Source: Psammoneis japonica (Eukaryota). From it: a stretch of 64,000 nucleotides of DNA. Position 1 is the stretch's first letter; every line of letters begins with the position of its first letter. This document shows positions 19,152-64,000 of the stretch, piece by piece. Location: assembly GCA_008632985.1 (NCBI GenBank), contig QPGO01000129.1, forward strand, positions 124,001 to 188,000. Reading direction: 5' to 3'. A model generated the notes under the pieces. It was not told the origin of the DNA, did not search any database, and saw only the letters and a list, made by a program, of their open reading frames with translations. The position numbers were made by a program, and so were the translations under genes.

Positions 19152-19582
19152 AGAGCCGTATTTTGCATGAGGTGTCGTCAACAGAAATCCTGCGGTCTGT
19201 AACAGACGATTAGAGCGGGTCTACATGTAGCCTTCATTGAAAGTCTAAAAGCATCGCAGGTGTATGAATCGAGCTCTGAGCATTGTCGCGTTTCGTCCGA
19301 TACAAATCCGGGCCAGAAGCATCGTCGATAGCGTCGTGATGCTCGGGTCCTCCGCAAGCGACGATAATGACACAATGGCGACTACAGTATACTACGACAG
19401 GTATAGCAGCTCAACATGCGCTAAATTTCCTTGTCCTAAACGTATGAATAGGTCCATAAGCCTACTTGCTCCTAAAATCACTCAGTCGCAGACCCTTGGC
19501 GGTTCAATGACGATGCAACATTACGACACCGAGAAAAAGGGACCCAAAGTCTGTTTTTTCTTGGACCTCGCAAAAACTGAGC

Positions 19583-19754
19583 AAAAAACGAAAGAAAGGA
19601 AAACAGCGCAAAAACAGCGCAAACAACGAAAAAAAGCACGCAGGCACACACAAAATGAGCAACATGCCAAAAAACGAAAGAAAGGAAAACAGCGCAAAAA
19701 CAGCGCAAACAACGAAAAAAAGCACGCAGGCACACACAAAATGAGCAACATGCC
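19583..19754 (+). repeat. Exact 86-bp tandem duplication covering the Hsp70 leader and start codon
   Basis: 19583-19668 and 19669-19754 both read aaaaaacgaaagaaaggaaaacagcgc...cacaaaatgagcaacatgcc. Confidence 0.9.
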
Positions 19755-21840
19755 GTCGCCGTCGCCGTCATCCATGTTGGAAGAGAAGGAGCTAGTCTTT
19801 GACGATTCGAACCAAGCAAATGAGCAAGAGACATCAATACTAACTAATACAAGTGGTGTTTGGGTGGGCGTTGATTTTGGAACTTCGAATTGCGCGGCTG
19901 CCGTATGGGATTCCAACGGAGGACGTGCAAAACTCATGCGACTGGGAGAGAGTGGTGGCGGTGGTAAAGCTAGTCGCATTGTCCCATCCGCTGTCGCATT
20001 CTTAAACGATGAAAAAGACAGTCATGGTGATCATCAGAACGGTACAATCATTGACGTTGCTGATATTCTTGGAGAGAAACACCGGGACGATGAACTTTCG
20101 CGGTGTGTTGCGGTTGTGGGACAAGCTGCGATGAATCTGTTTGGGAATCAGAGTCTCGAGCAGGAAAACTATGAAGTGGTTTCAACTTGTGTTATTACGT
20201 GTGTGAAACGTATCTTGGGCATGGCTGGTGACGACGATTCCACCAAGGACTTTTTGAAATCCATGCCGTTTGAATGCAGTACCGATTCCGACACGGGGAA
20301 CCTCAGAATTCAAGTGTCACCACTCAACGACACGGACGAGGTACTATCCGTCGATCCTGTTGATATTGTAGCAATTCTATTGAGGTATATTCGACTTATG
20401 GCGCAGCGCTACTTGAAGAAAGCGGTACGAAAAAAAGGTCTAAAGGTACCGTGTGATGAGACGGAGCACGCCGATTCCATACAAAATGTCGTGGTGGGCG
20501 TTCCTGCTCATTTCAGTCAAGCACAACGCCATTTGATTATGAAAGCATGTCAGATTGCTGGATTTGAAGGACACGTATCGACATTAACAGAATCAACGGC
20601 TGCTGCCATGGCGTATGGATTGTTTGTAGGAAGTCAGCAAGAGTCGCGGCACATTTTGATGTTTGACATGGGCGGCGGGACGACCGACGTTACCATTGCT
20701 AAAATGACCACAACGGACGAAACCGGCCCGGCGTTTCGTGTAGTGGTGGCAGAGGGTGATGGGCAGCTTGGAGGGACCGACATGGATCAGTGCTTGTTTG
20801 ATTTGGTTCTGAAGAAACTCAATGTCGAAGCGAAAAGTCTAACCAAACGAGAAGTGCAAAATCTTCTCTTGTCCTGTCGACGAGCCAAGGAGGAACTGTG
20901 TGGCGATGGTACAAGCAAGGTTGACGACGAAACATCAGTCACTGTTTCATTGGACAAACATCGATCTGTATCGGTTTCCATGAAAGATTTCAACAAGTCT
21001 ATTCAACCTCTTTTGGACCGTGCACGACATTTGGTGGAGCAAAAGGCATTGTTGCACTTTCATGACAAAGACCACAGCGGCACTCCCACAACAATTGTTG
21101 ACGAGGTTGTTTTGGTGGGTGGGGCAACACGAGTCCCTGCGGTGCGACACTTTCTAAAGGAGTTGTTTCCCCACGTGGAACTATGTTGTTCCCTGAATGC
21201 CGAGGGTGCCGTAGCTCAGGGCTGTGCCATCCAAGCAGCGATTCGGTCGAAACTAGTACCCAACCATGAAGTTCGATCTGCGCTCATGCTAGACGCATTG
21301 CCGCACGCAATTGGTGTTTTGGTAAATGACAAGGATTTTGTTTCAATACTGAAAAAGGACATGCCGCTACCTGCCATGGGATACGCTACCTTTACATTGG
21401 CAAACATTGATCAACCGGGTGTGACGGTGGAAGCGGTCGAGTTTGTTCCCGACTACCATGAACCGTATCAGCCCATGGGCACCTTTTCCTTCCTGTTACG
21501 TCGACTGTCAAAGGCACAGCTGGCTTCCTTGGGTAAACGGTCCGTTGATATTGGAATGACTTTGGAAACGAGTGGCAAACTAATTGTTTCCATTTTTGAT
21601 TGGAACGATCCGGAACACTTGGATAAGAGACGTCGTTTTCAAGCTGAAAAGATTCCGCGGTCGAACGACAACCTCGATTTAGGCTATGATGAAGCCAAGT
21701 CGCATGGGGTTGAACCAGACGAGAGCGTGACACTAGAACAAGTCTTTCTCTTTCTGGCTTGTGTCATTCTATTTGCACTCTACGTTGTGGTCAAGTTAAC
21801 CTTTCATGGGCAACCAGAGGAAACTGCGAGAATACTGTAA
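19741..21840 (+). CDS. Atypical Hsp70/DnaK-family chaperone with a C-terminal hydrophobic (putative transmembrane) helix
   Basis: Motifs VGVDFGTSNC, VVVGVPAHF, ESTAAAMAYG, FDMGGGTTDV, QLGGTDMD, VVLVGGATRVP and AVAQGCAIQA. Ends with VFLFLACVILFALYVVVKL and has no EEVD or HDEL. Start is placed at ATG 19741 because the upstream ORF extension is low-complexity duplicated leader. A 22-bp tandem repeat spans the stop (21820-21871). Confidence 0.92.
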   Translation: MSNMPSPSPSSMLEEKELVFDDSNQANEQETSILTNTSGVWVGVDFGTSNCAAAVWDSNGGRAKLMRLGESGGGGKASRIVPSAVAFLNDEKDSHGDHQNGTIIDVADILGEKHRDDELSRCVAVVGQAAMNLFGNQSLEQENYEVVSTCVITCVKRILGMAGDDDSTKDFLKSMPFECSTDSDTGNLRIQVSPLNDTDEVLSVDPVDIVAILLRYIRLMAQRYLKKAVRKKGLKVPCDETEHADSIQNVVVGVPAHFSQAQRHLIMKACQIAGFEGHVSTLTESTAAAMAYGLFVGSQQESRHILMFDMGGGTTDVTIAKMTTTDETGPAFRVVVAEGDGQLGGTDMDQCLFDLVLKKLNVEAKSLTKREVQNLLLSCRRAKEELCGDGTSKVDDETSVTVSLDKHRSVSVSMKDFNKSIQPLLDRARHLVEQKALLHFHDKDHSGTPTTIVDEVVLVGGATRVPAVRHFLKELFPHVELCCSLNAEGAVAQGCAIQAAIRSKLVPNHEVRSALMLDALPHAIGVLVNDKDFVSILKKDMPLPAMGYATFTLANIDQPGVTVEAVEFVPDYHEPYQPMGTFSFLLRRLSKAQLASLGKRSVDIGMTLETSGKLIVSIFDWNDPEHLDKRRRFQAEKIPRSNDNLDLGYDEAKSHGVEPDESVTLEQVFLFLACVILFALYVVVKLTFHGQPEETARIL

Positions 21841-22593
21841 AGAAACTGCGAGAATACTGTAAAGAAACTGCTACTACCAGTAGAGCATTATAACGAACGT
21901 ATGTGTGCACACTCGTACCTCCGATTCTATTAAGAAAAGAAAAGAGGAGGGGGCGCACAGCAGCAGGCAGCGCTGGTGGCAATGTTGCATCAGCAAGTGA
22001 CAATGTTGCTTCAGCAAGCGATGGCAGTGACTTTGCAACATTGGTCGATCGAACATGATGACAGTGACAGCACTCCAGCAACATCGAGTGTCTCGTCACC
22101 ACATCTTCGCCTGTCACAACATGCCAACCAAAATGACAAGAATGGACCAACAAGGTGTCTTCAAATGCCACTGGCACCTGCCCTTTCCGTTGTTTCACAA
22201 AAAGGCAGCATGGCACTTCTGCATTTGTCTTCCAACCCTGAGTGCAAACAAGCCTGTGCAGGTGCATTGGTGACCCATTTCAGAGAAAAAACCTGCAACG
22301 AAAATCCTGAAATTTGTGTGGTCATTTTTGGTGCTTCCTTCCTTGAGCAATTGCATTGATTCTTTCACATCACAACAGGAGCACACAAAACATGCCATGA
22401 AGTTTCTGCATGGTCACAAAGGATGAATGGGACAAACACAATTGCAAGAGACAAGAGAAGCATCTGACTGCCACTTGCTCTTGGCTCTTCAACCATCACA
22501 TTCTTCCACACCAATGCCTGAATTATGTGACATGTTCCAGCACCAGGTGACTTGCAAATGGGCCTTTTCATCAGCTTGTGTGTTGCTCACAAT

Positions 22594-23148
22594 GACGTGT
22601 TCCAGCCGCTCGTGAACCAAATCGTGCACAAAAACGACATTTGCGCGATTTTTGCGCGGTCCCTAACTTACGATCGAACTTTCACCACCAAAAGTATAGA
22701 TTTACTCAAATATATATGTTTTGCAACACTAACAAGACTCGTGTGAGTGTTGCAATATCATTGTTATTGTGCTATCTATGTTTTTCATTGCGTTAAAAGA
22801 TTCGTAACACAACGGATGATTTTCGGCGAAAATATTGCCGTTATTTTGATGTTACCTAAATATATCTTTCTACGATGATATTTGGTATGTTTTCTACCTA
22901 CAAAAAAATCTCAGTATAAATCTACTGACGTACAATCAGTATTGAGTCTACTGAGGAAGTTTATGATACATATCCCATGAGGATTTGAATACCCCTCAAA
23001 AAACTATTTAAATGTGCATACTCTAGAGTCCTATAAAAGTCAATCCGTCTAAGTATTTTTATTAAAATGCTGCATACACTAGAATATACATAAATTATAT
23101 TCAAAATCCGATTGTCGTTTTGTGCGTCACCTGGGACTGGAACACGTC
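22594..23148. mobile_element. MITE with perfect 12-bp TIR GACGTGTTCCAG and 4-bp TSD CAAT; TA-rich, essentially unmutated copy
   Basis: caat|gacgtgttccag ... ctggaacacgtc|caat. Interior is rich in TA although both flanks are TA-depleted. A related terminus lies at 22529. Confidence 0.9.
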
Positions 23149-23600
23149 CAATGAAGCACATTCACCCCAACCACAAGCATCAAAAAAATTAACCACCTTC
23201 TTCACACTCCAAGGGAATCATTTTTTCAATTAGGAGCAAGCTCCCCAATGTGGCAAACAGCATGCTCAACATGACAAGGAAAATGATGGCATGTGGCGAC
23301 GTGGACACTTTCCACCTGATGACAACCAAAACAATGTTTTCTGAGTTGTCACATTTGGCTCAATCTCTGCAGACACCAATTCTCTTTTCCAGGGTCATTT
23401 TGTGATGCCCCGCTCTGAAAGTGCTCAGCACACAAATGACAAAACATTGAATCTGCCACATCTGATTCATCCCGTGTTGTCATTTTTTCTGTGTCATGCA
23501 GGTCAATTTCAGTGGCCTTGTGTGTCAACTTTCTGTCATGCATGAAAGACCAACAAAATCTTGCAAACACAGCAGGGTCTGCTTTGACACAAAATCTGCC

Positions 23601-24379
23601 GATGGGCTCCAGTCCCAGGTGGGACTCCGTGTGACATTGGGCCCGCAGAATTCTGCGTGCAAGCTCCGCAGCAAATTCACGCTGCAATGAAAATGTGTGT
23701 GATCGCCAACAGAAAAAGAGGCAATTTTGCGAACGCATCTCCTCTTTCACACTTGGAGCACATCATTGACAGTTTGCCTGGGTTTGTTTCTTCAGACATC
23801 AACTTTTCTGCACCCGTGCTGTTTCGCGCGATTGCCCCATTTGAACAAAATCTTCAATTTTGAACACAAATCATCATGTGTCTCTCGTGCATGCAGCACT
23901 TGCATGTAAAATGCTCATGTGGATGTGCTTTTGCAGGTGTCTAGAGTGTGAACATTTAATTGGGTTTTTCGTTGGTGTGTGCACAAGTCCTCATCGGATG
24001 TGCATCACAAACTCCCTCAGTGGACTCAACACTGATTGCACTTTGGCACATTGTGCGCACAGATTTGTCTGCAAGCGGCAATCATGCCAGACAGCATCGC
24101 AGAAAAATTGCTTGTGTCAACATCAAAATGACGGCAATGATTTTGCCGAAAATCATCCGCTGTGTTGTGACTCGTTTGTTGCAATGAAATGCACAGATTG
24201 CACAAAAACAATGACGTCGCAACACTGACGCGAGTCTTGTCAGTGTTGCAAAACATTCAAATTTGTGCAAATCTGTGCTTTTGGCAGAGAAAGCTCAATC
24301 GCAAGTCAGGGGCTGAGAAAGTCGTGCAAATGTCGTTTTTGTGCATGACTTGGTTCGCGTGCGGCTGGAGCAGCACGTC
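23601..24379. mobile_element. Related MITE in inverted orientation, fully TA-depleted
   Basis: About 23855-24379 aligns as the reverse complement of 22594-23108. The left end gatgggctccagtcccaggtgggactccgtgtgacattgg resembles the MITE end at 57490-57533. Flanks do not form a TSD, so it may be composite. Confidence 0.8.
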
Positions 24380-24513
24380 CAATGTTGCTGGAGCACATTG
24401 CACGTGAGAGATGTTCTGGGCAGATCCTCACCTGGCAGGGCAGTGCATGAACAGCCAGGAGATGCAAAAGAGTGCCACAATGAATGCTGCTGTCACTGCT
24501 TTGTGTGCACACT

Positions 24514-24773
24514 GGCCTGTTCCAGCTCCAGGTGATCTGCTTTTCATCGCGCGAAAGGCCGATTTTCTGCGCAGTTCAGCGCAATTGACTCCTTCAACTT
24601 TGATCGTTTCGAAAATCGAAAGGTGAGTGTGCACCCAAAAACACATGCAAAGTGCACACTTGCCCTTCAATTTGGCAAAAAACGGATTTGGAAAAAGTTA
24701 ATTGCGCCAAATGCACAAATTTCCAAATGATGGGAATCGAACCCACGCGGAGCACCTGGAGCTGGAACAGGTC
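24514..24773. mobile_element. 260-bp MITE, TIR G(G/A)CCTGTTCCAGCTCCAGGTG
   Basis: cact|ggcctgttccagctccaggtg ... cacctggagctggaacaggtc|cgct, a 4-bp TSD with one transition. Interior matches 41879-42056. Confidence 0.85.
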
Positions 24774-25835
24774 CGCTGCTTTTTGTGCTGAAAAGGAAAA
24801 GGCTCTTGTTGTGATCGACAAATTTGAGTCAGGAATGTGAGGAGTTGCAGTCTGGCACACCCATGACAGTGTGTGTTGCAGTCCTCTGCTGCAGAGTGGT
24901 GGAGAGTGGCACTCGGCACATCATTTTGCCCTCAGCCTTGCCCCTTGCCTCACAGCAGACAGCGGTTGTAAATTGTTGTCGTGCGTCCTTTGATGTCCTC
25001 GGATGTCCTAAAATTATGTCCTCATATGTCCTCAGTTGTTGTCCGCAATCGTCCACAATGTCGGCGACACACTACACTTATGCTGGTACGAAGAGACAGC
25101 AGGGCTGTCTAAATCAAAAATGTCCAAAGGGCATAGTCGTTAAGCAGCTTTCTTCCGATCGCTAAGCAGTCGTCGAATGTGGATCGGCCATTTTTTCCTT
25201 AATGGACATTTGATGAAATGAATGCTTTTTATGTAGGGATTGTTTTTGCTTCGAAGACATTTTGTTTGATGAATATATTATTTAACAAATTGTTAAATGT
25301 CTGAATAAGATACTGTAGAGACAAAACTAACAACGCACGGGTGTTCCTATCGGGTGTTCTTATCTTCAATCAATGACTGTGACTGGAGATATGACCAAAC
25401 ATTTAACGCAGCATCGAACCAAAAAGACTTATACTATCTGCTTCTCATAGTCGTACTGCCGCAACAGCAGACGCTACGCACAAAAAAAATGCGGTCATTC
25501 ACCGGGAAGCCAAGAGCAAGCTATGAGAACCCCGCAACCGCCGGCCGATCGTGGCAAAGGTCAGCGAGTTCAAAAACAGACACTGTGTACTGTGTACAAG
25601 GACACGCATCCGATGTCAGAAATAAACGAAAGAGGATTTGAATTGACAACCGTTTTCCTTTTATCACTCTTGGCACTTATGTAAGTTGCTTGCTGTTGAT
25701 GTCGACTGCTTTTGCTTCCTACAAGTATCATAAGCTCAGAAATGTGGTTGCACGTTGATGTCGACAATAAGAGCTTACCAGAACCAGCTCACTTTCTGCT
25801 TTCTTGTGCTTGGTTGGCCAGCGCTCTCTATTATT

Positions 25836-26462
25836 ATGAAGTTTCCTCCTTATACTCTCGTACTCGCACTCGGCCCCGCCATTACTACGAACAATACTAA
25901 TGGTACAATCTTCCCAAACAACACCAGCAATGCAACACTCTCCCCCGTCGTGAAAGAGGACCCCGGTGACGCTTTTACGGAGGAGGGCTACCTCGTTTCT
26001 CACATAAGCAAATCCCGCGATTGGTGTCTCACTGCCGTCAAGAAGACACGTGATTACGGGAACCTCGCCATCAGACGTTGCAGGTATTCCGCCTTAACTG
26101 ACGATCAAAAGTGGCAGATTTTCGAAAATGGTACGATCCATAGCGGCATTGATCATGCCGGTAACGCCTCGGACCGATGCGTGGTTGTCGGTCACCAGCG
26201 CAGATTCTTCAACGGCGTTCGATTACGTCTCGGTCCGAAAGGTTCGTGTGGATCTGGTAAGTTAAACCAGTTCATCACAGATGGCGACTTCCTCAACCTC
26301 ACCGAAGACTATATCAAGCTTCAGGATGACAATGAGTTTTGCGTCACCAACCGCGGTCGGAAAGCACACAACAGTGACATTATGCACGCCAAGCTGTGCC
26401 ATAAGAGGGACGATTTCCGCTGGACGTTCAAGCCGAAGAGTGAAGTGTCGTCACCGGGATAA
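25836..26462 (+). CDS. Secreted ricin-B (beta-trefoil) lectin-like protein, one domain
   Basis: Hydrophobic N-terminus MKFPPYTLVLALG, then WCLTA..C..DQKWQ, RCVVV and FCVTN..C..FRWTF subdomain pattern. Paralog of 29668-30903. Confidence 0.75.
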   Translation: MKFPPYTLVLALGPAITTNNTNGTIFPNNTSNATLSPVVKEDPGDAFTEEGYLVSHISKSRDWCLTAVKKTRDYGNLAIRRCRYSALTDDQKWQIFENGTIHSGIDHAGNASDRCVVVGHQRRFFNGVRLRLGPKGSCGSGKLNQFITDGDFLNLTEDYIKLQDDNEFCVTNRGRKAHNSDIMHAKLCHKRDDFRWTFKPKSEVSSPG

Positions 26463-26699: not shown

Positions 26700-27800
26700 C
26701 TCTACCTTTGTCTTGCAGTCGTCTTTTGAGCAATCCTGCCTTTTAGAATTCAAAGTTTGTGCTTGTTCGGTGGCTTGTTGTAAAAGGCTCGTGAAACACG
26801 CTAAGAATGATTTTTGCAGCAAGAGATTCAGAATTGTCCCTTGCACAACGTGCACAAGGTGCAAGTCAAGCTGACCACATCAAACAGAATGCTCACATCA
26901 GGAACAAGGGGAAACACATTGAGTGCAATGCAAACAGTTGAGCTGCCACCTCTTCCATTGGAAGCTGCTTTTTCCACAAAATCTTGATGCTGTGAGGACA
27001 GAAGGCATTTCAAGAACAAAATCTTCAAGAAGTGACAAAAGCTCGGGGTTGCAGGCAAGAAGCAAGAACAAAGCATTTGCACATGATGAATTTGGCTGCA
27101 GCAACACATCAAGCTTGACAAGAGCAGAGATTGTGATGAGCTGCCCAGCTCCCACACAACCCCCACACACTTGCCTTTTGTGCCGTTGTTTGTTGCCAGC
27201 AGTGGAGACCAGCCACACCACAACGGTGTTTTGTCTCTGGAGGCTCCTGGTGACCACTTGGAGTGCTCTCCATGAAGATGGCAATGAAGTCAGAAATGAC
27301 AGCAGCAAGGCCAGCACCAGCTGTGGGTGACCCAGCTTTGCAGCCATGGCATGTGCAAGCTGATGCCAGCCACAAGTCACACAGAGCGAGAGATGGCCAC
27401 AGAGGAATGGCGAGCCCCAATGAGTTGTCTCTGTCAAAAGAGAGGGTGCCCTTGTGTCTTGCAATCATCACCCCTTTTGTTTGGGACAAGCCCCAGTTGC
27501 TTGGAAATCAAATTGAAGTTTGCAGCATGTGCGGCACTTGGTGGTGCTTTGCACTTGGAAAACTGTGCTGCTGCACAGCAAGAGCTGTGCTGAATCACAC
27601 TGCATGCAAGGGTTCCACTTGCGAGCATCAACGTCAAGGTTGGACCTCATTCAAGCAGCAGCCAAGTTTTAATTTTTTTGCTGCACATTGAAAAAATCAC
27701 CACACTTCAACCGGCAGTGGAAAAATTGCATGTCTTTGCAAGGGGGCCAGCAACTTTTGTCAAAGAAAGAAACTCAGGTGCTCTTTGTTTTTGTGTTTTG
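26700..27800 (-). pseudogene. Hypermutated paralog of the PIG-T/GPI16-like gene
   Basis: Aligns with about 31250-32100, e.g. gtgcaagtcaagctga..atgctcacatcaggaaca vs gtgcaagtcaagctga..atactcatatcaggaaca. Peptide LVPDVSILFDVVSLTCTLC vs PVPDMSMPFNVISLTCTLY. May extend to about 28600. Confidence 0.8.
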
Positions 27801-29667
27801 TGCAGTCAAAGACTGAGCATTGATTGTTTCTTTGAGCTGTGCCATGCCTCAAGAAGACATTTCATGCAAAGGAAAAAAGCAGACAGCAAGCCACCAAATG
27901 CTGCCCTCAGCATTTTTCAAAAGAGAGCGTTGTGATGTGCTTCAATCAAGCACCACAGCCAACTGTTGCAAGTCTGGGCTTTTTGTTGTTTTGAGCAACA
28001 TTTGGTTGGCTGTGGCTCAACAAAACAAAACCCAAAATCCCTTTTTAAGGTGCTGCGCTGCTGCACTTTTGCCCCGAAACTCCAGCAAACAAGCCAGCCC
28101 ACACTCCCAGTGCACACAAAGTGCAGCAGGGGTGTGCAGCAATCAGCCTAAATTGGTGTTGCTGCAAGGTGATTGGCTGGCTGCAGTTCAATCTCACATC
28201 GTGCCAACAACTGGCACACTTGAGTGCGCACCCTCTTGTCAGATGACCCTTTTGAAGTCACATCAAATGAGCAAAAATCATGCGCACAAAGCCGCGCATT
28301 GCACGGTGTTCATTGAGAGCCAAGACAAGCTTGGGCAAGTGCAGCTTTTCTTCATTCAAGAACATTGTTGAAAAAGCTTGTGTGTGCATGCAAACAAGCA
28401 CACAGCTCGCCACATGGCCAAATGTTTCAGAGCAAAAGCTGCCAACTTGGCAAGAAATGGCCCCACAGCTGTTGTCTCAACAGCAATTTTGCAAGCAGCT
28501 GCCTTTGCATGCTTGCTGCCAAGCTTTGTTGTTTGCAGCAAGGCAACCTGCTGCTGCCTTTTGTGGTTTGATTTTGAGTTGCACCTCAATCATGCCCATC
28601 ATGGTCGTGCCCACTTGCATCTGATTGAATGTTCACACACCATGCAGAGCAAGCTGTTGGGATCTGGATGTTTTTTGGTGCTGTGCTAGAGCAGCAGCAT
28701 GACCAATGAGCAGCATGGCCAACGGTGGTGCACGGCATCTGTGCACCCACACCAAGAGGAGCTGATCTGCTTGGCTCTTGACAAGGCACTTTGCCCAACG
28801 ACGTCATCTGCTGCAAGCCCAGAGATGGTGGTTGTCATCAGCTGTGCAGCTCTGTGAACATTGTGTGCACTGCAGAAGCCAGGCATTGCATGTCTTGCCT
28901 GAAACGCAGGGCAGCAAGCGACTCTGTGAACCCTGGCCAAGCATTTTCTTTTGTTCTTTCGGCTTGCCCTCACAGGAAGAAGGCCAGAAAATGGTGCTGG
29001 AAACTTGGGCAGCTTCACAGTGCCACCCTGTTTGCCATCCCTGGTTCACTCCAAGTCTCTTGGCATCTGAGAATCCATCGACTGGAATTGCCCAACTAAA
29101 AAGTGCACTTCTTGTCTGCCTCTCTGAGTCTGTCCATCCCACCAAACAGAGTCGCTGACACCCCTGACACCTGACACACCTTTTCTGTTCACTTGTCTTT
29201 GTCACACACGACTTGACTAACTCCGTCTGCGCTGTCTGTTGATCACACGAGTGGGTAAAATTTGGCGCCCCCTCCCCCCGGATGACAGCCAGCCCTACGT
29301 ACAGTAGTGGAGTGCCGTAGTGTTTGCTACGTCGTAACGTACACCATTCGCGGAGTTGTCACCGGCCAAATATTTTTGAAACACCCCTTCTACCAGTAAA
29401 TCCATCGCCGGTCTGGGTCGTGTGGTCAACGAGTTATCCGGAAAATAAGCGAACCCTCCTCTCACAAAATTGTTTCACTGTTGAAGTGATAAGTGCTTTT
29501 TCTTTTATCATCCTTTGCAGTTCGTAAGTTGCTTGCTTTTGATGCTATTGACTGCGTTTGCTTCTCTACCAGAAACTCAGGAATGTGCGAATTGATAAGA
29601 GCTCGTCAGAACGATCTCACTTTCTGGTTTCTTTTGTTTTGGTTGTTGGCCAGAACTGACCTTTGTG

Positions 29668-41878: not shown

Positions 41879-42056
41879 GGCCTGTGCTGGCTCCAGGTGA
41901 TGCACAATTCATCGTGCAAAAGGGTGTGAGTGTTGTGTGCACTTGCCTTTCAATTTGGGAAAAAATCGGTTTTGAGCAAGTTCATTGTGCCAAATGCACA
42001 AATTGGCCAGTGATGGGACTCAAACCTCTGCGCATCACCTGGAGCTGGAACAGGCC
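41879..42056. mobile_element. 178-bp MITE with 4-bp TSD TCCT, same family as 24514-24773
   Basis: tcct|ggcctgtgctggctccaggtgat ... atcacctggagctggaacaggcc|tcct. Confidence 0.85.
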
Positions 42057-43156: not shown

Positions 43157-46100
43157 GGAGCAAATGCTGTTGCACTGTCATGAATGTGGGCAGTTTATGT
43201 GCTGTTGGCGATTGGTCCACTGTCACTCATTCAGTGGCCCCGGTGGCGCAACATCTCACAATTCTAGAACATGCTGATGCTGTTCAACACTCTGCCTTGT
43301 CTTGCACCCAACCCTCAGCTGTCATGGCAGCATTTGTTCACTTTGTCAGAGCCAATGCGCTGTGATGTTCATCACCTGGAACGGGCATCGCGAACGGCAC
43401 GACGGCATCGTTGCAATCGATCGATTTTTGCAGCAAGCGCCATGTTGGTCCCATGGTTGCTCGCGCAATTGCTGAGTCCTTTGTGTTTGTCAACATTCAT
43501 GCATGTGAACGACATGCTCTTGGAGACCAGAGCTGTGATCCGTCAGACATGACGTTAGAGCACGGAATGTTTGATCACGTGGATGGAATGTGTTGGCTGA
43601 GGCACACAAACATTTGTGACAAAGATGACATGATGATTTGTGCGCTGATGTCTGTCATTTGATCACATGCATTTCATTGATCAAAACACGTTGTCAAGCT
43701 GCTTGGACACTGTGCATGTGGACACATGTCTGTTGCCAATCATTGCTTGGGAGTGACACCGCCTGCTCGCGGGTTCGCCAAGTAGAAACCGCCAAATCGG
43801 CACAAGAACCACACATTTTTCTCACTTTCCTCCACTCACACAAGTGGATGCTCACGTGTCGAAATGCAAACAACTGCTGATGCACCATGGCCGCTGCCGC
43901 AGCCTTTGCCGCTTGTCTTGCGCACTGTGGACACAATGCGCAGATGTGCACCTGCACAGCCCATCAAGGCTTTGCTGCTGTCAAGGACTTGGAACAGGTC
44001 CCTTTGACAGAAATTGCCGACATGACCAAGGGCATTGTGAAGAGCGTGGATGCCGCCACTGACCCCCGAGTCCGCTTCCCATGTCTGGTGAATCACAAGC
44101 TCAAGGCACTGCGCACATGGATTGGCTGCCGCAGGGCCCGAAATCAAGAGCCGACCGCTGCTCTCTTTGCTGGCGACGTCATTGGAACATGGACGGCACA
44201 TCTCACGGAACTGGAGCAGTTCAAGTCTGCAGACTCGGATGACGAATCAGCTGCCAAAATGGCCGTGGAGCTCAAGAACCCACATGACTAGCCTGCCTTC
44301 CAAGAGTTGCTGGAGACCGAACTGCGTCACCACCGCAGTGCTGTTGCGGCATGCCCCTTGTCCACCTCATCAGGGAGCATGAAGACATCACCGCCAAAAT
44401 GTTGGATGCCACCTGCACTGCCATTGACGAGGACCTTGTTGCCACTGCTCGACTTGCAGGAGCTCAGCATGCGCAGGATGGACAATGCCTGTGTGATCTC
44501 TTGAAGAAGTTGGTGACAGGTGGGCCCGGATGGGCTTTTGTCAAGCCTTCCAATCGCAACTGCGATGGTCGCACTGCTTTCTTTGCACTCAAGAGGCAGG
44601 CAGAAGGATCGGCTGCCACCACTGCCCGAAAGAACCGTGCTTGTGCACAGATTGCTGCTGCAAAGCACACCGGATGGGGTCGATTCACTTTCGACCAGCA
44701 CGTTCAGTGCCACAAAAAAGCTCACAACGACTTGTCCGAGCTTGATGAGCCGGCAGCCGAGACCAAGAAGGTCTCTGACTTTCTGAAGGGTGTTTCCGAC
44801 CCCAGGTTGGAAACTGGTGAGAGTGCAGTGGATGGAGACCCGACAAAGCTGGCGGATTTTGAAGCATGCCAGCAGCACATGAAAACTCTGGCAGAAAATG
44901 CCAAGAACCGCAATGCTGACACTCGTGGAATTGCATCCATCCAATGCCACAACAACCGGCATGGAAACCCTGGCGGAAAGCACCAACCTAAAAAGGACAA
45001 GCCCAGGATCTGGGCAGGCCATCATCCCACAGAAGAGTGGAGTGCTCTTGACGGTCCTGAGCAAGAGCAAGTTCAAAAGCTCTGCGATGCCAAGAAAGCC
45101 AAAAAGAAATGCAAAGCTGCAGCTGCGTCCTCGGAGGCTGAGACGGTCGATGCCGAAACTCGCGCTGTTAAGAAAGCGACCATTGCCGAGCCCAATCCTC
45201 AACCTGCTGATGAGCCAAAGGACTCTGAAGAGCCCAACAAACCTGCCGCCAATGCAGGCACCCAGTTCAGACGCAGTGTGCACAAGAAACCTCAGAAGGA
45301 GGAACGAATGGTTGCACCAGCACCAAAAGGCACAGAACCAAATGTCCCTGAACCTGCTGGCACTGCACATTTATCTGAGCGATTCTCAAAGGACACACAT
45401 GTCTCTTCATCATCTGCTGGAAATTCAGATGATGAAGCAACCACTGATTTGGACTCGCACGCTGACACGTGTGCTGTTGGGTCCAATTTTATAATGTGCT
45501 CTGATGTCGACAGAACTGTCATGGTGCACCCTTGCTCCGAAGAGCACGCACCAATGGAAAACATTCCTGTTTGCATGGCTGCTGCCATGTGGGTTGATCC
45601 AGCTGATGGACAACCACACCTGCTGCCAGTCCATGAGGCTGTGTTTTTCGGGGACAAGATGACTGACACTCTCCCATGCCCCAACCAACTGCGAGCGAAT
45701 GGACTGATTGTCCACGACACCCCTTGCCAGTTTGATCCGACTGGCGCACACTCTGTTTCTTTCCCTGACTCGAAGATCAGGACACCATTGTGAATGCGAG
45801 GTGTTGCTTCAGTCTTTGATTCACACAAGCCAACAAAGGAGGATTTGGAGAACCTCCCCCAGCTGGAACTCACATCACCCCTGAGATGGGAGCCTTCTGC
45901 TGATGCCCTGGCGCAAAAGGAGGAAGCGCGTGCATGTGCCAGTGTGCGCCAAGGATCAGCAAAGTCTGACGGACGGTCGACGATGATGAATGCGATCAGG
46001 TGTGTTGCCTCCATTCATTCACACCAAACGTCCTGTCACAATGAGAGCGTCATTGTGGATGCTGATGACGATGATTCTTTGCATCACCGCCTGGTTGCTC

Positions 46101-49100
46101 AGGCAAATGTCTCCCACAATGACACTGAGGGAGACGGGCCACACGACCGGCATGACCTGGATGTCCACCTGGATTGTGCCGAGCGGAAACGGGTGCATGC
46201 ACTGTCAAACTCGGGTCGTGCATCAACCATCACACCCAAGACACTTTCTAAAAGGTGGAACATTTGCCTGACGGCCGCCAAGAACACCCTTAGAGTGACA
46301 ACCCAGGCAGGGGTCCGCAATGCCTGCACACCTTCCGAATGGAAAGTCCGGAAGAAAGCCCCTTGGCTTAAGTTCCCTGCTGTCAAGGGACGCTTCTACT
46401 CTGACCAGATGTTTTTGAAGGTCAAATCAACACATGGCAAGATGGGAGGAAGCGCGCTCACCAACGGAAGAGGGTGTGATGGGTTCTGTCCTTGGAAGAG
46501 GAAACAGGACCACCCAAACACCGTCATGTCATTCATGCATGACGTTGGCACACCGCAGGTCCTTGTGTCGGATGGCACGCCGGAAATGGCTGGAAGGCCA
46601 GACCAAGGAGATCTGCAAGGAACACAGGACACACCAGGAGGTGTCCACCCCTTGCAGCCCCTGGCAGAACCTGGCCAAGGCATCCATTCATGAGTTGAAG
46701 AAAAGAGTCCGTGTGACTCTACGCCGGACTGGCGCTCACAGGCGACTTTGGTCCTGTGGTGCCAAATGGATGTGTGACATCTGACGCATGATTGCGGCTG
46801 GCATGTCGGATGTGGGAGGACGAGTCCCAGAAGAGGAGGTGACAGGTTCAACACCTGACATCTTGTCCCTCTCTCTCTTTGATTGGCATCAACCTGTCTG
46901 TTGCTGCATGCCTGTGGCGGAGTTCCCACATGAGAAGAAGTGCATTGGCCATTGGCTCGGAGCAGCTGACAATTGCACTGATGACATGGCATTCATCATC
47001 TTGCCTGAATCAGGCAAACCCATCATTCAGAAGGATGTGTGGGCCATGCCGGAGGATGACCTTAAAACTCCAGCGATCCAGACAGATCTTGCATTGGTTG
47101 ATCAAGCTTTGATCGAACAGCTTGGCATCCCGGAACAGGGTGCCAGTGCTGACTTCCCTGAACTCCCTGACGACTTCATGGACGAATGGGACGATGCCGT
47201 TGAACCCGTGGAACCCGATGCTTCCAAACCGGAAGCTGATGAGCACACCCCGGAGGGGGCCAGATGAGTGTCTCACAGCTCAAGTCATGTCACCATGCGG
47301 AGGCGAGCTGACTCATGCCAGGGTCATTGCACGCAAAAGAGATGGCGACGGGGTTCCCATTGGTGCTGGGAACGACAACCCTGTCCCAGACTCAAGGACA
47401 CACGATGTGGAATTTCCTGATGGATCTACTGACTCCTGTGCTGCTGACGCAATTGCAGAGAACCTGTTCGCACAGATCGACTCTGAAGGGAATGCCTGCC
47501 AGATTGTGAAGGAGATGGTCGATCACCGACGTGATGCCCGTGCTGCAATGGCCGATGACGGGTGCATGACGACTGAGACTGGCAGGCGTGCTCCTGGGAG
47601 GACGACCGCAGGCTGGGACCCACAAGTCAAATGGAAGGATGGGACTGCATCCTGGGTTCCTCTCAAGGATTTGAAGGAATCCAATCCAGTCGAGGTTGCT
47701 GAGTGCGCTGTGGCAAACAAAGCAGCCAGTGAGCCAGCCTTTAACTGGTGGGTCCGCGACGTCTTGTGTCACAGGTCAAGGATCCTGAAGAAAGTCAAGT
47801 CGCGCCACTGGAAACGCATGCACAAGTTCGGAGCTGAACTCCTGAAATCTGTCAAGGAAGCCATGTAAACAGACAACAGAATGGGGACTGACTTCTGGCT
47901 CAAGGCTGTTGAGAAGGAAATGCGCAACGTCATGCCTGCGCTCGAATTCCGCGATGATGACACTGCACCGGTCGGGCACAAACACATTGATTGTCACATG
48001 ACTTTTGACATCAAGAGCACCCTCCAATGCAAAGCGAGGTTCGTGGCCGGAGGCCATCAAACTGATCCACCCAAGGAATTGACCCACTCCAGCATGGTGT
48101 CGCGTGATGGCGTTGGGATGGCATTCACTGTGGCAGCTCTGAATGACCTGGAGGTCCTGAGTGCTGATGTTCAGAATGCCTGCTTGAACGCACACACTGA
48201 GGAAAAGTGTTGCACTGCTGCTGGCCTGGAATTTGGGAAGCAGAATGAGGGAAGGCCGGCAATCATTGTCCGTGCCTTGCATGGTCTCAAGTCTTCAGGT
48301 GCAAGATTTAGGGAACACATGGCAGCTGCTCTGCGGGATGCTGGGTTTGAGTCTTGCAAGGCTGACCCGGATGTCTGGATGCAAGCTGCGGTTAAGCCGG
48401 ATGGCTTCAAGTGCTGGGAATGTGCACTTGTCTGTGTGGACGACTTGTTGTGCGTCTCCCATGAACCTCAGAAGGTCATGGATCATGTGAGCTCTAGACA
48501 CACGCTCAAGGACGGAAGTGTCTGCGAGCCGGAAGAGCACTCAGGCGCCCAGATCAGAAAGCACCAGCTGTCTGACTCGGATGGTGAGACACGCTGGGCT
48601 GTGTCTTCTGACATTGGTGTCAAAAGGGCATCAGCTGATGTTGAATTGGAGCTTGAGAAAACTGACAGGCATCTTCCAATGAAGGCGTCGACGCCCTTGA
48701 GCTCGGGATGCAGGCCTGAACTGGACGGCTCACCTGAGTTGAATGCCAAAACGGCCAACTGCTGTCAAGGCCTTGTCGGTGTGCTGCGGTGGGTGGTTGA
48801 ACTAGGGCGAGTGGACATTTTTGTCACTGTCTCACTCATGTCCTCCTGCTCAGTGGCACCACGGGTTGGACACCTGGACAAGGTGCTCCACATCTTTGCA
48901 TGCTTGAAAGCTCATTCTAAGTCTGCGCCAGTGTTCGACGACACTGAGCCCGTCTTTGATGAGAGTCACTTTGCCAAGTGTGATTGGGAAGAACATTGCC
49001 CTGGCGTGGCTGAAACAATGCCGCCGAACATGCTGGAGGCATGCGGGAACAGCGTGACAACTGCTTGCTTTGTCGATGCTGACCACGCCGGATGCCATGT

Positions 49101-49853
49101 GACATGCAGGTCCCATGCTGGGATCCTGACATTTGTCCAACGAGCACTCATCCTGCATTGCTCTAAATGGCAGAATGCCATAGAGTCCTCTGCTTTTGGG
49201 TCGGAGTTTGTGGCTGTGAAGACTGCAGCGGAGCAAATTGAAGCCTTGCATCACAAGCTTCGGATGCTCAGAATCCCCATGGATGGGGCCACTGACGTTT
49301 TCTGCGACAATGAGGCTGTCTTCAAGAACTCAACTGAACCAGAGTCCACTTTAAAGAAGAAGCACAATGCAGTTGCCTGTCACAGGACTCGTGAGGCACA
49401 AGCCGCTGGAACAGCGCGCATTGCTTGGGAAGACGGACGCACGAATTTAGCAGATGCACTGGCCAAGTTGTTGCCTGGACCAAAGCTCCAGGAAATCACA
49501 AGCCACATCCTGTGGTGAGTCCCAAAAGGGGACAAACCAAACGGGTTTGCCGCGCAGGTGTGGCTTTTCCCACCCCCAAAATGAAAATGCCACCCTGGAG
49601 TGGGGCAGCATCAGGTTGCATTTGTCTGTCAATCTGGCCCGAGCGGAGCTGGTGTCAGTTCGAGGGGACTGAATGAATGCTGACACACTGTCACGAACAC
49701 AGGCAGTTCATGTGCTGTTGGCGATTGGTCCACCATCGCTCATTTGGTGGCCCTGGCAGTGCAACATCTCACAATTCTAGAACCTGTTGATGCTGTTCAA
49801 CACTCCACCTTGTCTTGCACCCAATTCTTGGCTGTCATGGCAGCATTTGTTCA
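43157..49853 (+). mobile_element. Full-length Ty1/copia (CoDi-like) LTR retrotransposon A, inactivated
   Basis: Direct LTRs at about 43157-43340 and 49671-49853, PBS-like tgtcagagcc after the 5' LTR and PPT gagggga before the 3' LTR. Domain order is gag, protease, integrase, RT, RNase H. TSD ambiguous (aaat occurs at both ends). Confidence 0.95.
43887..49518 (+). pseudogene. gag-pol of element A; conserved Tyr replaced by Cys/His, several stops and frameshifts
   Basis: Protease DLDSHADT, integrase VLVSDG and PCSPWQNLAK, RT KARFVAGGH, ADVQNACL, RALHGLKSSG and CVDD (48433-48444), RNase H FVDADHAG, FCDNEAV and NLADAL. ORFs 44351-45793 (480 aa) and 47881-49518 (545 aa) contain no Tyr. Confidence 0.95.
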
Positions 49854-58501: not shown

Positions 58502-59923
58502 TTGAGAGTCAGAAACCGCCGGGCTGCGACATCCTGTTTGCAGTTGAGTGCTGAGCTTCCCATCCGGTCCACAGGGTTGTGCCGGCACATCCGAGCCCGC
58601 AGCTGGCGACGCTTTGGGTTGCTTGAGAGTGGAGCAACGGGTTAAAAACCCCTGCTGACAAGCCAGCCAGAGGTGGGCAAGACCTCCAAACCATTCTTGT
58701 TTTATGTCGGTTGGATGACCCGATCAGGCCAGCCAAATTTGGTGCTGTGGAGGGACGAACAAAGGTGGGAAATGCACCCTTGCCCCAACGCAGGCTGTGA
58801 TCATGAACTGCTTCCTCTCACAGTTGTCCTCGCAGACCTTGTGGGACTGTGGAAGACCAGCAATCCGGCGCAGATACAAGGTGGCAGACTTGGCGTGCGC
58901 GGAGCAGAGCCAGAGTCAGGGGTTTGTGTCGTGTGCGCGTGGACGTGAGCGGATGGATTGGTGGGATCCGCTGTGAGGAATCCAGAATCTCGGATGTCTG
59001 AGGATTCGGGAATTCCTGGCCAAACAAACATCCGTTGAACAAATGTGTCCAATGATGAGAAGCATTGGATGAATCCAAACATGCAGATTTAATCCAGCGT
59101 CCAACAGTGAAGAAGGTAGACACACACTTCCACCACCAATGGTGCGCGTCATCGAAAAATTTCTCGATGACGATGATGAATGCTCAATGGACAATGAAGA
59201 GCAAGGCTGTCAATCTGACAGAAAATGAAGATGACTGGGTGGAAGAAAACAACAACTCCTTGCTGCTGTCTAAACAGCAGATGAGTCTCCATGCAGAGAC
59301 CGTCACAGGAGCCGAAAGACTGGTGTCATGATGTCGGCACTGCTGTCATTGTTCTTGTGAGCTGAGTGGCTCGAAAGCAAACTGCATCGCGTGACGTGCA
59401 CGGAACCAGGAGCACACATGATCATGTGTGACAAACTAAAATCTTGTTCAAATCCTGTCATTGCAGATTCAGCTGATCCAGGGCTCACTTTCAACACAGC
59501 AACATCAGCCCAAACAGACAGCCGCTGACTCACACCATTGATTTGAAGCTCTGGAGTTGGCCCATGTTTTCAATCCCCAAGCCACTGAAAGCAGGCCAGC
59601 CCAAAGACGGGGGCATTGTCAACATTGAATCCACAACCACAAGCTGATGCTGGCAAAGAATTGGAGATAATTCCAGGACATTGAGTGTCTCACCCCTCTT
59701 CTCACAACTTTGCCAAAACCTCTTTGGCCAAGTCTTTTTGCATGCACGGCCAAATTGTCAACATGGGCAAGTTCAAAATGCACCGGCTGTCCAGCAGTTC
59801 CTCCCAGCCAGATGGAAGAAGAAGAGAAAAGGAAAAGGAAGGAAAAAATGAACATTGATGAAGGTTTGAAAGGGTGCGCTGCAGCACCGCAGTGCGCACA
59901 GTGGTGAAGACGGACGTGGACAG

Positions 59924-61450: not shown

Positions 61451-61605
61451 CGTTTGCCGTGCAGTGTGCTCTGCAAATTAGCAGCACAGTGTGTTGGTGT
61501 TTTTCAGCGAAACTGTGGCATCAGTTGGAAAGGCGCAGCCCCAGTTGTGGTTCGAAAAATGGGAACGAGGAAGAACAGAAAGTCGGCAAATTTGTGCATG
61601 TCCAG

Positions 61606-64000
61606 TGACAGGATTTGAACAGGATTTGGGGTGCGCACGAAGTGTCGCGCGCTGTTTAGTTTACCGTGCACAGTTTTGTGTGCTTTAGTTCCGCGCGTTC
61701 ACGCGCGATGTAGTTTGCTTTCGAGCCACAAGGCTCACAAGAATAATGACAGTAGCCCGATTGTGTGCCGACTCACACGTCTTTCGGCTCCTGCAACGGT
61801 CTCTGAGCGGAGACTCATCTGCTGTTTAGACAGCAGTAAGGAGTTATTGTTTGAATTCTTGCCATTTGCCTTCATTTCCTGTCAGATTAACAGTCTTGCT
61901 CATTGTCAACCCATTGAGCAACCGCCATCGTCGTCGTTGATTTACCAACGACGCTATTTCAATTCTACGTGGACCTCCGTATATATTCTACATACATCGG
62001 CAAGTCTACGCGCATTCGATACCAGGGCATCGGCAGGAAGTTAACGTCACCGTCAAGTCTCCTTACCGCTGGATATCTGGATTGATTACACTACCTTTGA
62101 CCGCTGAAGACATACATTCAACGGTCATATCCAAGTCTATCCTTGATCCTCATCCCTTGATATACCTATTCATCGGTTAACGGTCAAGAACCCTACATAT
62201 TCAAGGATCTTCGTCGCTGAAGACATGTATATATATACATGTCTTCACGGCCAAGAACCTGTACCCACTCTTCGGACTGCGGTTTTGCCACCACTCTGCA
62301 GGCACACCGAGTCCATTGTACCTGATCTACCCCGGACTGCTGGTGCTCTACAGTTCTGCTGGGTCCACGAGGACGACTGTGAGAGCAAGTGGCCGTGATT
62401 GCAGCCTGCGTTGGGGCGAGGGTGCTTTCCCACGTTTGTTCGTTCGTCCACAGCGCCTGACGCCTACGTCAACTGGCCAGCCTGATCGGGAAATCCAACC
62501 GACATAAAATAAGAACGGTTCGGGGGTCTTGTCCACCTCCAGTCAGCTTGCCTGCAGGGGTTTACAACCCGCTGCTCCGCTCGCAAGCAACCCAAAGCGC
62601 CACCAGCTTCGGGTTCGGACGTGCCGGCACAACTCTGCGGACCGGATGGGAAGTTTAGCACTTGACAACAAACGGGATGACAAAGCCCGGCGACTTCTGA
62701 TTTTAAGACAGTTCAAGATTTCAAGTCAAGTCTGTTTCAAGTCAAGTCTGTTCTCACCCAAGTTTCGAGTCTACCTTCTCTTCCCAACCAGAATTGATTG
62801 TCCTGACACCACTTTTGTCTGCCATGGTTCTCACTCGTCAGCAACAAACCGATGGTTTCGAGCACGTGGTTGGAACCGTGCTTGCCCAAGGTGCTGGGAG
62901 TCCTCTTCGTTTGGCTTTGGCCCAAGACGGCACGGACTCGCATCAGGAACTGTTCACGTTCATGCCGTCCCAAATCGACTCGCTTGAGTGCGACAACGGC
63001 ACTAATGCAATCCCTTTGCCCCGTGGTTATAAGAACATGTTAGCAGCACTGGTCAGTCTGTACATTGTCAAAGCACACAAAGGTCTTGACGTTGCCAACG
63101 ACTCCTCTTTGTTCACGCATGACGAGTTCCTTGCCTGCCGCCTCAGCCCCGACTGCATGTCTTCTGTGTCCATCGGCAGCTCACCCCTTGCACCTCCACA
63201 TGTCACCAACCCGACCAAGGCACGCGACCCGGTGCGGGACTTCAAGCGAGGCATCAAGCGTGATCCCACCGCTTTCACGGCTCTCAAATCCGACAAGCAG
63301 TGGCACACTTGGCACACCTCACTTGTGGCACAAGCCCGTGCCCAAGACGTCGAGTGCATTCTAGACTCGTCGTACAAACCGACCAGCCCCGAAGACAAAC
63401 TGCTCTTTGCTGAACAGCAAAAGCACATGTTCGCCGTCTTCGAACGCATCCTTCTCACCGACAAGGGCAAGGCTCTCATTCGCGAAAATGTGGGGTCTTC
63501 TGACGCACAGACCGTCTGCCGCTCCTTGTCTGAGTGCGCGCTTGCCTCCACCCGTGCATCTGTCGAGTCCTCCACCCTGCTCACGCACCTGACCACCGCT
63601 CGTCTTGGTGATGGCACTTGGAAAGGTCCGACCCACGGGTTCATCCTTCATTGGCAAGATCAGTTGCGCAAGTGCGAGGCACTCATCCCGGCCAGTGACC
63701 ACTTCTCTGAAGGACAGAAGCGCGTCATGCTCGAGAATGCCGTGCACCCTGTCGAGGAACTCCGTGCTGTCAAGAACCAAGCTGATCAGCATCGTGCGCA
63801 GAGTGGCAAGAGCCTCACATGCGATCAACACTGTGGCTTGCTCCTCTCCGCGGCAGCTCAGTGCGACAGCACGTTTCAACCCAAGACGACACCTCGAGCT
63901 CCCCGACGCGCCACACACGCACATGACGTCTGCTCCGAGGAACCGTCCGACGATGTGTTCTACGACATTGACAGCGACGTTGACGTCCTTCAGGCCAATG
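61606..64000 (+). mobile_element. Ty1/copia element C (same family as B): 5' LTR, leader and gag, only partly mutated; runs off the window
   Basis: LTR 61606-61884 (tgacaggatttgaac...ttcctgtca) is homologous to the B LTRs. gag starts at ATG 62824 (MVLTRQQQTDGF), includes RDPVRDFKRGIKRD and appears open to the window end. Confidence 0.93.

Follow-up and report, generated by a model that had tools for sequence, protein, structure and literature searches.

The only report to date of DNA hypermutation specific to TpA is a 2026 preprint that describes mutation-accumulation lines of the chlorarachniophyte Bigelowiella natans (Mettrop et al., bioRxiv 10.64898/2026.01.13.699255). According to its main text, two integrated viral regions accounted for 231 of 302 new nuclear mutations, and 230 of these 231 were A>G or T>C, all stated to lie on TpA. 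Of the 15 lines, 11 were affected, the rate being ∼6e-7 per site per generation. The authors propose an ADAT2-like DNA adenine deaminase. The long-term footprint described there is faint and the link to transposons only suggestive. Here we analyze a 64-kb stretch of Psammoneis japonica DNA (contig QPGO01000129.1, positions 124,001 to 188,000 of the forward strand; hereafter the window), focusing on two copies of a miniature inverted-repeat transposable element (MITE). Copy A (22594..23148, + strand) carries TA dinucleotides in normal number, and copy B (23836..24379, inverted relative to A) has almost none. We conclude that TA is in all probability the ancestral state and CA/TG the derived one, and that A probably inserted once the last wave of mutation had passed over its locus. 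The process is a further case of the kind described in B. natans, here driven to saturation, found in another eukaryotic supergroup and accompanied by a rule for the base that follows the A. The main text of the preprint, supplements apart, makes no statement about that base (0 occurrences of either ‘trinucleotide’ or ‘context’).

Over the whole window, observed/expected ratios are 0.16 for TA and 0.50 for CG, compared to 1.61 for CA and 1.64 for TG. TA content is all-or-none. When 255 segments of 500 bases are scored, the TA ratio is <0.1 in 174 and ≥0.4 in 45, with only 16 segments falling within 0.15–0.4, a bimodal distribution. TA-poor sequence totals 50,045 bases and TA-normal sequence 12,755 bases. 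The TA-normal part consists of gene regions (with HSP70-like, MYND, ricin-lectin and Gpi16 frames), copy A and one further repeat at 61501–62800; the TA-poor tracts carry MITEs and a Copia element. Beside genes the tracts end sharply, within tens of bases. The pattern is thus localised, with repeated or foreign DNA rewritten and ordinary genes spared.

Copy A is 555 bases long and begins and ends with GACGTGTTCCAG and CTGGAACACGTC, respectively, a perfect inverted repeat of 12 nucleotides (nt) that extends to 22 nt at 82%. Its target-site duplication, CAAT, can be read directly on the left (22590–22593) and on the right (23149–23152). A contains no stop-to-stop frame of at least 110 codons and appears to be non-coding. 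It has the characteristics of a MITE: terminal inverted repeats, a target-site duplication of constant length (4 nt), and a short, non-coding body present in many copies. Its 53 TA correspond to an observed/expected ratio of 0.92 (CG, 1.46; CA, 0.96; TG, 1.28), with TpA/ApT of 0.88 and (CA+TG)/(AC+GT) of 0.97, so that in composition A looks like unbiased DNA. All 53 lie in the interior, where 52.2 are expected; the first 70 and last 49 bases contain none (3.6 and 3.0 expected from base composition). The eight termini of A's type that were displayed are all free of TA, over the first 50 bases in seven of the eight, which is a possible reason why mutated copies stay mobile. A hairpin at 22721–22755 was considered as an internal outgroup and set aside as uninformative, since it fits both directions of change.

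The tract around A (21932..25008) also contains B, some 700 bases from A, together with no fewer than three further elements whose termini are related. Outside A, it has 8 TA in 2522 bases. Local alignment pairs 22584–23135 with 24395–23836, blastn gives 74.8% identity over 492 bases, and, once B is reverse-complemented, 405 of the 531 aligned positions are the same in A and B. B has a decayed 3′ terminus, and its target-site duplication is not recoverable. Over 23855–24379, B has 3 TA (observed/expected 0.08), with ratios of 2.03 for CA, 1.83 for TG and 0.78 for CG. Its TpA/ApT (0.08) and (CA+TG)/(AC+GT) (1.79) resemble those of the TA-poor tracts. At the 52 aligned positions where A has TA, B has TG in 21, CA in 17, CG in 3, TA in 2 and something else in 9, so that 38 of 52 are now CA or TG. 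Conversely, B retains 23 of the 31 CA and 30 of the 35 TG that A has. Counted from A to B, the changes comprise 32 T>C and 32 A>G versus 4 C>T and 8 G>A; the T>C changes precede an A in 19 of 31 context-scored cases, and the A>G changes follow a T in 24 of 32. Scanning metagenomes with a 20-mer common to A and B returned 2 loci of ordinary TA content, in which the match was limited to the 20-mer, and these were rejected as chance.

Much of this had been anticipated in an initial annotation made from the sequence, which described a MITE with perfect termini and target-site duplication at 22594–23148, TA-rich in TA-depleted surroundings, and an inverted relative at about 23855–24379. The termini, the CAAT flanks and the TA counts bear out the first description. 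The relative is indeed inverted, and its left limit has to be moved, as the alignment reaches 23836. The string pairs quoted there as TA converted in B are all present in the sequence and in the alignment, and the ctctaga that it listed as common to both copies contains a CTAG that is one of B's two retained TA. The pairwise alignment and substitution table that it called for are those given above, with transitions heavily T>C and A>G at TA. The annotation also held that the two copies side by side give the direction of change. The direction it named, from TA to CA/TG, agrees with our conclusion, but the pair alone does not supply it.

That the pair cannot polarise itself is the first point that counts against our interpretation. 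A change in the other direction fits the two sequences equally well: CA/TG would be ancestral, and A would have been altered by repeat-induced C-to-T change (CpA to TpA) within the repeated unit, as in the repeat-induced point mutation (RIP) of ascomycetes. In keeping with this, the change stops exactly at the borders of A, as RIP does at repeat borders, most of the family's sequencing depth (see below) has CA/TG at A's TA sites, and A's indices (TpA/ApT 0.88, substrate 0.97) are near the thresholds used for Neurospora. RIP is recognised by an excess of TpA and a deficit of CpA/TpG, and A has neither (TA 0.92, CA 0.96, TG 1.28); its composition is unbiased. Moreover, a RIP-like process would leave the TA-free state of ∼50 kb of the window unexplained. 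We regard this alternative as very improbable, mainly on evidence from outside the pair, namely the tyrosine columns of the Copia element, the differences between its long terminal repeats (LTRs), the sequence context of surviving TA, site 22940, and the mutation-accumulation result in B. natans.

The Copia-type LTR retrotransposon (43165..49853, + strand) is decayed and lies in a TA-poor tract. Its reverse-transcriptase/RNase H frame (47869..49515, + strand) spans 549 codons and has zero tyrosine. Against Pfam RVT_2 the frame scores 28.9 bits (E = 1.1e-06), under the 31.6-bit cut-off, and phmmer with it as query finds 466 library proteins at E ≤ 1e-30. For comparison, 32 homologues were picked from the 150 best matches for covering most of the query. 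Tyrosine makes up 3.4–6.2% of each of these homologues, compared to 0% in the window's frame. Conserved columns are otherwise well kept, with 177 of 232 identical. None of the 15 conserved tyrosine columns is retained: eight are now cysteine (TGY), five histidine (CAY), one tryptophan (TGG) and one glycine (GGT). By contrast, conserved histidine is kept in 6 of 6 columns and conserved cysteine in 1 of 1. It follows that TA became CA/TG and not the reverse, and loss of all 15 tyrosine columns is likewise hard to reconcile with a RIP-like origin of A's TA. The base before the tyrosine codon does not discriminate between outcomes in this frame (pyrimidine, 2 histidine and 4 cysteine; purine, 3 histidine and 4 cysteine). 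Two further proteins among the 150 best matches (P0187 and P0201) contain 0% tyrosine and 4.5–5.1% histidine and cysteine, and each has lost 13 of 13 conserved tyrosine columns, mostly to histidine or cysteine. Hence, TA-erased Copia frames exist in other public records.

The two LTRs of a retrotransposon are identical at insertion, a consequence of the mechanism of LTR retrotransposition. Those of the Copia element (43163–43340 and 49676–49853) are now 85.4% identical over 178 bases, differing at 26 positions, and 16 of these 26 make up 8 sites with CA in one LTR and TG in the other. Put another way, 8 of 11 adjacent double mismatches are CA versus TG. Such differences mean that change occurred independently on each LTR, after integration and in chromosomal DNA, and here too a RIP-like direction is contradicted. 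A CA-versus-TG site can derive from TA or from CG; because CG is about half retained in the element and TA almost gone, most of these sites should come from TA. Just after the 5′ LTR (43341–43355) is a putative primer-binding site, in which TG would stand for one TA, and a purine-rich run precedes the 3′ LTR.

The TA that survive in TA-poor tracts are not a random sample. Among 141 such TA in 50,045 bases, 45 are in CTAA/TTAG, 36 in TTAA and 17 in CTAG. Together these account for 98 of 141, compared to 80 of 519 TA in the 12,755 TA-normal bases (odds ratio 12.5, P = 3e-34). At the other extreme, the tracts contain no ATAT and no GTAC, one ATAC/GTAT and two ATAG/CTAT. Relative to TA-normal density, survival is ∼30% where both strands read T-A-purine, 1–6% where one strand does, and 0–0.4% where neither does. 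This pattern implies that the target is the A of T-A-pyrimidine, with the A of T-A-purine largely spared. Copy B conforms to the rule. Its two retained TA, in TTAA and CTAG, represent 2 of 9 in the spared class, compared to 0 of 41 in other contexts, and at sites with T-A-pyrimidine on one strand only, the outcome follows that strand in 13 cases versus 4 (P = 0.049). Since B follows the survivor rule of the tracts, it is tied to the process that rewrote them, a further difficulty for a RIP-like change confined to A. In A itself, none of the 21 TA that belong to the most susceptible class has been lost.

To look beyond the assembled sequence, we used contigs of one sequencing run (X1), built from exact 31-letter words. 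The sample is a single one, possibly the assembly's own, and its library type is unrecorded. X1 contigs match 21000–22640, 23121–23630, 23754–24144, 24255–24540 and 24742–25516 with 0 differences, indicating that the TA-poor sequence is real. These matches bear on an artefactual explanation, in which modified bases at TA and CG in silent DNA are miscalled as CA/TG and the true DNA still reads TA. It has in its favour that TA and CG both become CA/TG in the same tracts, and that the runs, of unrecorded library type, may be the assembly's own data. But contigs of exact words at a depth of ∼65 with 0 differences in several TA-poor pieces are what accurate short reads give, and according to the preprint the B. 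natans signature was obtained with Illumina reads. Moreover, two other tyrosine-free Copia frames occur among the 150 best library matches, and loss of TA and loss of CG are uncoupled in many tracts (in B, CG is 0.78 and TA 0.08). A base-calling artefact is therefore scarcely credible.

At ≥80% likeness, 3760 X1 contigs align to 21000–26000, and over A their summed depth is 90–450 times that of the flanks; this depth is not a copy number, though it accords with a high-copy MITE family. The family data bear on polarity at site 22940, which reads TA in A and TG in B. In the other family contigs, C replaces the T in 63% of the summed depth. TA is the only state one step away from both of the others, in line with TA as ancestral, whereas a RIP-like origin would need double changes here. 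The B. natans data provide, as far as the preprint's main text goes, direct evidence from another organism that such a process exists, in the direction that we infer. As there, the changes found here are A>G or T>C at TpA with TA ancestral, in the tyrosine columns, the A/B comparison and the LTRs alike.

Several observations weigh against our interpretation. At five of the six A TA sites displayed, the majority of family depth (63–80%) shows one single alternative, B's state, and a majority rule alone would make CA/TG look ancestral. The single alternative suggests amplification of already mutated copies, which is possible because the termini hold no TA. At 22847, 23016, 23028, 23029 and 23082, 92–97% of summed depth differs from A, so that A is not the family consensus and not demonstrably brand new; the depth sharing A's letter is 67.6 at 23029, about that of one locus, and 169–289 at the other four positions, again with the proviso that depth is not copy number. 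In addition, 82 of the 126 differences between A and B are not TA-context transitions. Because of this, A and B are family members rather than recent siblings, and B may have inserted already mutated. A target duplication for the Copia element was looked for and none was found. Finally, the runs come from the one sample of unrecorded library type described above, possibly that behind the assembly.

The age of A is subject to further reservations of the same kind. A 2916-nt X1 contig covers 21000–22640 with 0 differences and crosses the left junction of A by 47 bases. A second, of 510 nt, covers 23121–23630, also with 0 differences; only 28 of its bases lie inside A, which is under the 31-base bridging rule. 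Both junction contigs are unbranched and at flank depth (67.3 and 64.8, compared to 56–60). The joint expected of an empty site, 22593 to 23149, is absent among the 15 of 29 joints shown, a result to be read in light of the fact that contigs drop rare variants. Thus, the A insertion looks fixed in the one sample examined. The initial annotation had raised polymorphism of this insertion among strains or haplotypes; within this sample none is seen, which is no proof of fixation and is silent on other strains.

These reservations notwithstanding, A keeps all 53 TA inside a tract that has been rewritten right up to its target duplication, in line with the proposal of the initial annotation that A inserted after the last mutation episode. 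The serious rival is that A has been shielded rather than being young: the mutator would be aimed by sequence or chromatin (small RNAs, silencing marks), and A or its subfamily would have remained unmarked. Some targeting must exist, given how sharply the tracts end beside genes, and the B. natans process, as described in the preprint, was selective among viral insertions and did not affect every line. A's variants, missing from 92–97% of family contig depth, define a small sublineage that could have escaped marking, and A looks fixed in the sample. On the other hand, rewriting has reached the same family, namely B and, at A's TA sites, the greater part of the contig depth. The 21 TA of A with the most susceptible context have all survived. 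And two TA-free stretches near A (22002–22502 and 23171–23504) are at single-copy depth in the X1 contigs at 80% likeness, indicating that rewriting is not confined to DNA that is presently repeated. Targeting is therefore not strictly repeat-dependent, nor narrowly bound to sequence. On balance, we consider shielding of A unlikely, though it is by some distance the alternative to be taken most seriously.

In the scheme that we consider likely, A and B belong to one non-autonomous MITE family, present in high copy number, whose termini are 12 nt long and whose target duplication is 4 nt. On this view, a diatom-like host mutates non-genic DNA on the chromosome, turning TpA into CpA or TpG nearly to completion and leaving mostly those TA with a pyrimidine on the 5′ side and a purine on the 3′ side. 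B would have passed through this rewriting, or would descend from a copy that did. A would have inserted into an older related element after the tract had been rewritten, and would have escaped so far, making it younger than the last wave there. The anatomy of the elements, the A/B asymmetry, the polarity, the action on integrated DNA and the context rule are read from the window itself; the enzyme, the choice of targets and the discreteness of the waves are conjectural parts of the scheme. As to timing, the data accommodate the initial annotation's wording, that the process is episodic or slower than transposition. An untouched A in a rewritten tract, together with bimodal TA content, fits discrete waves, and it fits equally a fast continuous process that has yet to reach A, or selective targeting. 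By way of illustration, the rate in the preprint (6e-7 per site), with 3.3% TpA, would correspond to ∼1e-5 per TpA per generation, at which the 53 TA of A would take a first hit within roughly a thousand generations. The data fit a very young A, a process that is mostly off and an untargeted A alike.

As for the chemistry, we lean, by a small margin, towards adenine deamination: within T-A-pyrimidine on either DNA strand, adenine would be converted to hypoxanthine, which would be read as G at the next replication. A mirror reading may account for the same footprint: the mutable base would be a modified thymine on the opposite strand, preceded by a purine and mispairing with G. If adenine is the target, a TadA/ADAT2-type deaminase is the likely enzyme; that assignment is pure inference, and this too must be counted against the interpretation as a whole. 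Outside TA, the A-to-B comparison includes 12 T>C and 8 A>G changes, half of them in AA/TT, with 4 non-CpG changes in the reverse direction, and there may be weak activity on A-A.

Loss of CG accompanies that of TA to varying degrees. In TA-poor tracts the CG ratio ranges from 0.06 to 0.8, and CG also ends as CA/TG. In B and the Copia element it is 0.55–0.78 while TA is 0.05–0.08, compared to 0.06–0.2 for CG in older tracts. Conserved arginine columns of the Copia frame have been affected as well, with 5 of 15 now cysteine, glutamine, tryptophan or histidine. CG loss looks like a slower, separate process, uncoupled from TA loss. Surviving CG is context-dependent in its own way: relative to TA-normal density, it stands at 0.85 for GCGC and 0.17 for ACGA/TCGT.

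The A/B pattern is repeated by a second set of sequences in the window, in which a TA-normal repeat (61501..62800; TA 0.62, CG 0.98) has TA-erased relatives at 58509–59460 and 53673–53919. At 61.6–62.7 kb the repeat shows TA at places that read CA or TG in these relatives. In an aligned 305 bases, 11 TA correspond to 4 TG, 4 CA, 2 TA and 1 TT in the copy near 59.3 kb. Two TA retained in all three copies are both in TTAG. Elsewhere, a TA-poor tract contains a 2.8-kb tandem duplication (36040–38824 and 38823–41531; 95.8% identity). Its halves show 8 CA-versus-TG sites as against 582 concordant CA/TG, and 90 of their 114 differences are transitions. The small number of CA-versus-TG sites places the duplication later than the erasure of TA. 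At ∼10115–11588, in a tract with TA of 0.02 and CG of 0.06–0.09, self-matches of 69–73% identity at offsets of ∼171–190, 371, 559, 750 and 935 bases point to a decayed satellite of ∼185-base units.

Other elements in the window have termini like those of A. One is a solitary terminus (22529..22558, + strand), with the exact terminus motif at 22533–22550 and inverted-repeat pairs; it ends 36 bases upstream of A's start. Another is a small TA-free MITE (24514..24773) with the same type of terminus, the motif at 24518 and 24752, arms that are 92% complementary, and flanks of CACT/CGCT (one mismatch). As many as 28 loose contig ends fall at 24771, within this element. A sibling of it at 41879..42056 has the 4-nt flank repeat TCCT/TCCT. 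Overall, the window contains 10 occurrences of the terminus motif when ≤3 mismatches are allowed, compared to 0.39 expected from shuffles. Near one end of each small MITE is a stretch somewhat reminiscent of a tRNA T-arm; ARAGORN finds 0 tRNA genes in the window. A search of 21000–26000 against Rfam gave only one sub-threshold match, to a small Cajal body RNA (scaRNA; 16.9 versus 68 bits).

Host genes are recognisable in the TA-normal segments. Named relatives of the HSP70-like frame (19264–21840; 35–49% identity) and of a Gpi16 exon (40–46% identity) are all from diatoms, with none from chlorarachniophytes among these named homologues. There are also a MYND-finger frame and two ricin-lectin frames. 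The latter (frames around 25638–26449, 29481–30236 and 29742–30839) are paralogues with 72% identity over 821 bases, the second with an internal 552-base duplication at 93.8%; 31242–31422 and 26725–26906 form a 77% match. Altogether, 70 open reading frames (ORFs) of at least 150 codons are listed in the 64 kb, and almost none has any domain. A Pfam scan of 150 of the 192 stop-to-stop frames of at least 110 codons identified RVT_2 and Gpi16 only; the remaining 42 include frames downstream of 54969, and some of the 42 overlap with 12 additional ORFs that were scanned as well. No transposase was found in the window among these 150 frames and 12 ORFs. With TAA and TAG erased, reading frames in TA-poor tracts stay open over long distances, on either strand and overlapping one another.

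This last effect has practical consequences. TA-free tracts yield spurious long ORFs in each of the six frames, which can mislead gene callers, and tyrosine-free transposon proteins are missed by domain models, as illustrated by the RVT_2 match under the Pfam cut-off. Full-text literature searches found no report of TpA hypermutation or TA erasure in diatoms. What the window adds is a saturated footprint in a diatom-like genome, with MITEs and an LTR retrotransposon struck after integration. The third-base rule (T-A-pyrimidine struck, T-A-purine largely spared) gives the search for the enzyme a narrower focus. The A/B pair shows the states before and after the change side by side and, with other TA-bearing copies, could serve as a clock for the last run of the process. 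Pressed further, our account would describe a genome defence of the diatom lineage that deaminates the adenine of T-A-pyrimidine on both chromosomal strands, in saturating, all-or-none waves conceivably tied to a rare sexual phase. Transposons and other non-genic DNA would thereby lose nearly all TpA, including every tyrosine codon and most TAA and TAG stops, with MITEs remaining mobile by virtue of TA-free termini. TpA hypermutation would then be an old and widespread defence common to Stramenopila and Rhizaria, not one chlorarachniophyte's oddity. We offer this broader proposal tentatively, doubting it slightly more than we believe it.

How, then, does the process compare with known systems? 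CpG decay by cytosine methylation in transposons has its parallel in the depletion of CG in the TA-poor tracts, which also ends as CA/TG, and in the altered arginine columns of the Copia frame, but CG loss lags behind TA loss and is uncoupled from it. Ascomycete RIP is also a defence that riddles repeated or foreign DNA with one type of transition, in a dinucleotide context and up to the borders of elements, leaving bimodal composition and dead transposons behind. It differs in that RIP changes C to T mostly at CpA and so creates TpA, whereas here TpA is destroyed and the drift is toward G+C. RIP further requires duplicated sequence and a premeiotic stage, whereas here stretches that are presently single-copy have been rewritten too.

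Adenine deamination by TadA/ADAT2 and ADAR enzymes gives the same A-to-G outcome. The natural enzymes act on RNA. The T-A-pyrimidine footprint seen here resembles the surroundings of the TadA target adenine, between U and C in the tRNA anticodon loop, and differs in that T and C are about equal in third position. It also resembles the preference of a TadA-derived variant that edits DNA adenine in a pyrimidine-A-C context, as described in a review (PMC13109818), and a 5′ preference for U/T is also a feature of ADAR, as noted in the Discussion of the B. natans preprint (bioRxiv 10.64898/2026.01.13.699255).

The closest match, going by the main text of that preprint, is the B. natans process itself. 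In both cases, TpA becomes TpG or CpA, an A:T to G:C change that occurs in chromosomal DNA and on TpA only. Both strike non-host or silent sequence and spare ordinary genes, leaving clusters poor in TpA and rich in CpA and TpG. The B. natans process is not constitutive (11 of 15 lines), and an unmutated newcomer such as A would fit that behaviour. The differences are in setting, intensity and kind of evidence. There, the host is a chlorarachniophyte (Rhizaria), whereas the named relatives of two host genes here are all diatoms. There, the effect is mild, with a TpA Rho of 0.45 in the viral region and 124 clusters in the genome, compared to observed/expected ratios of 0.02–0.1 over ∼50 of 64 kb. 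New mutations were seen directly in B. natans, where the link to transposons comes only from Pfam enrichment; in the window, the process is read from its footprint in the sequence, and it is MITEs and a Copia element that have been rewritten.

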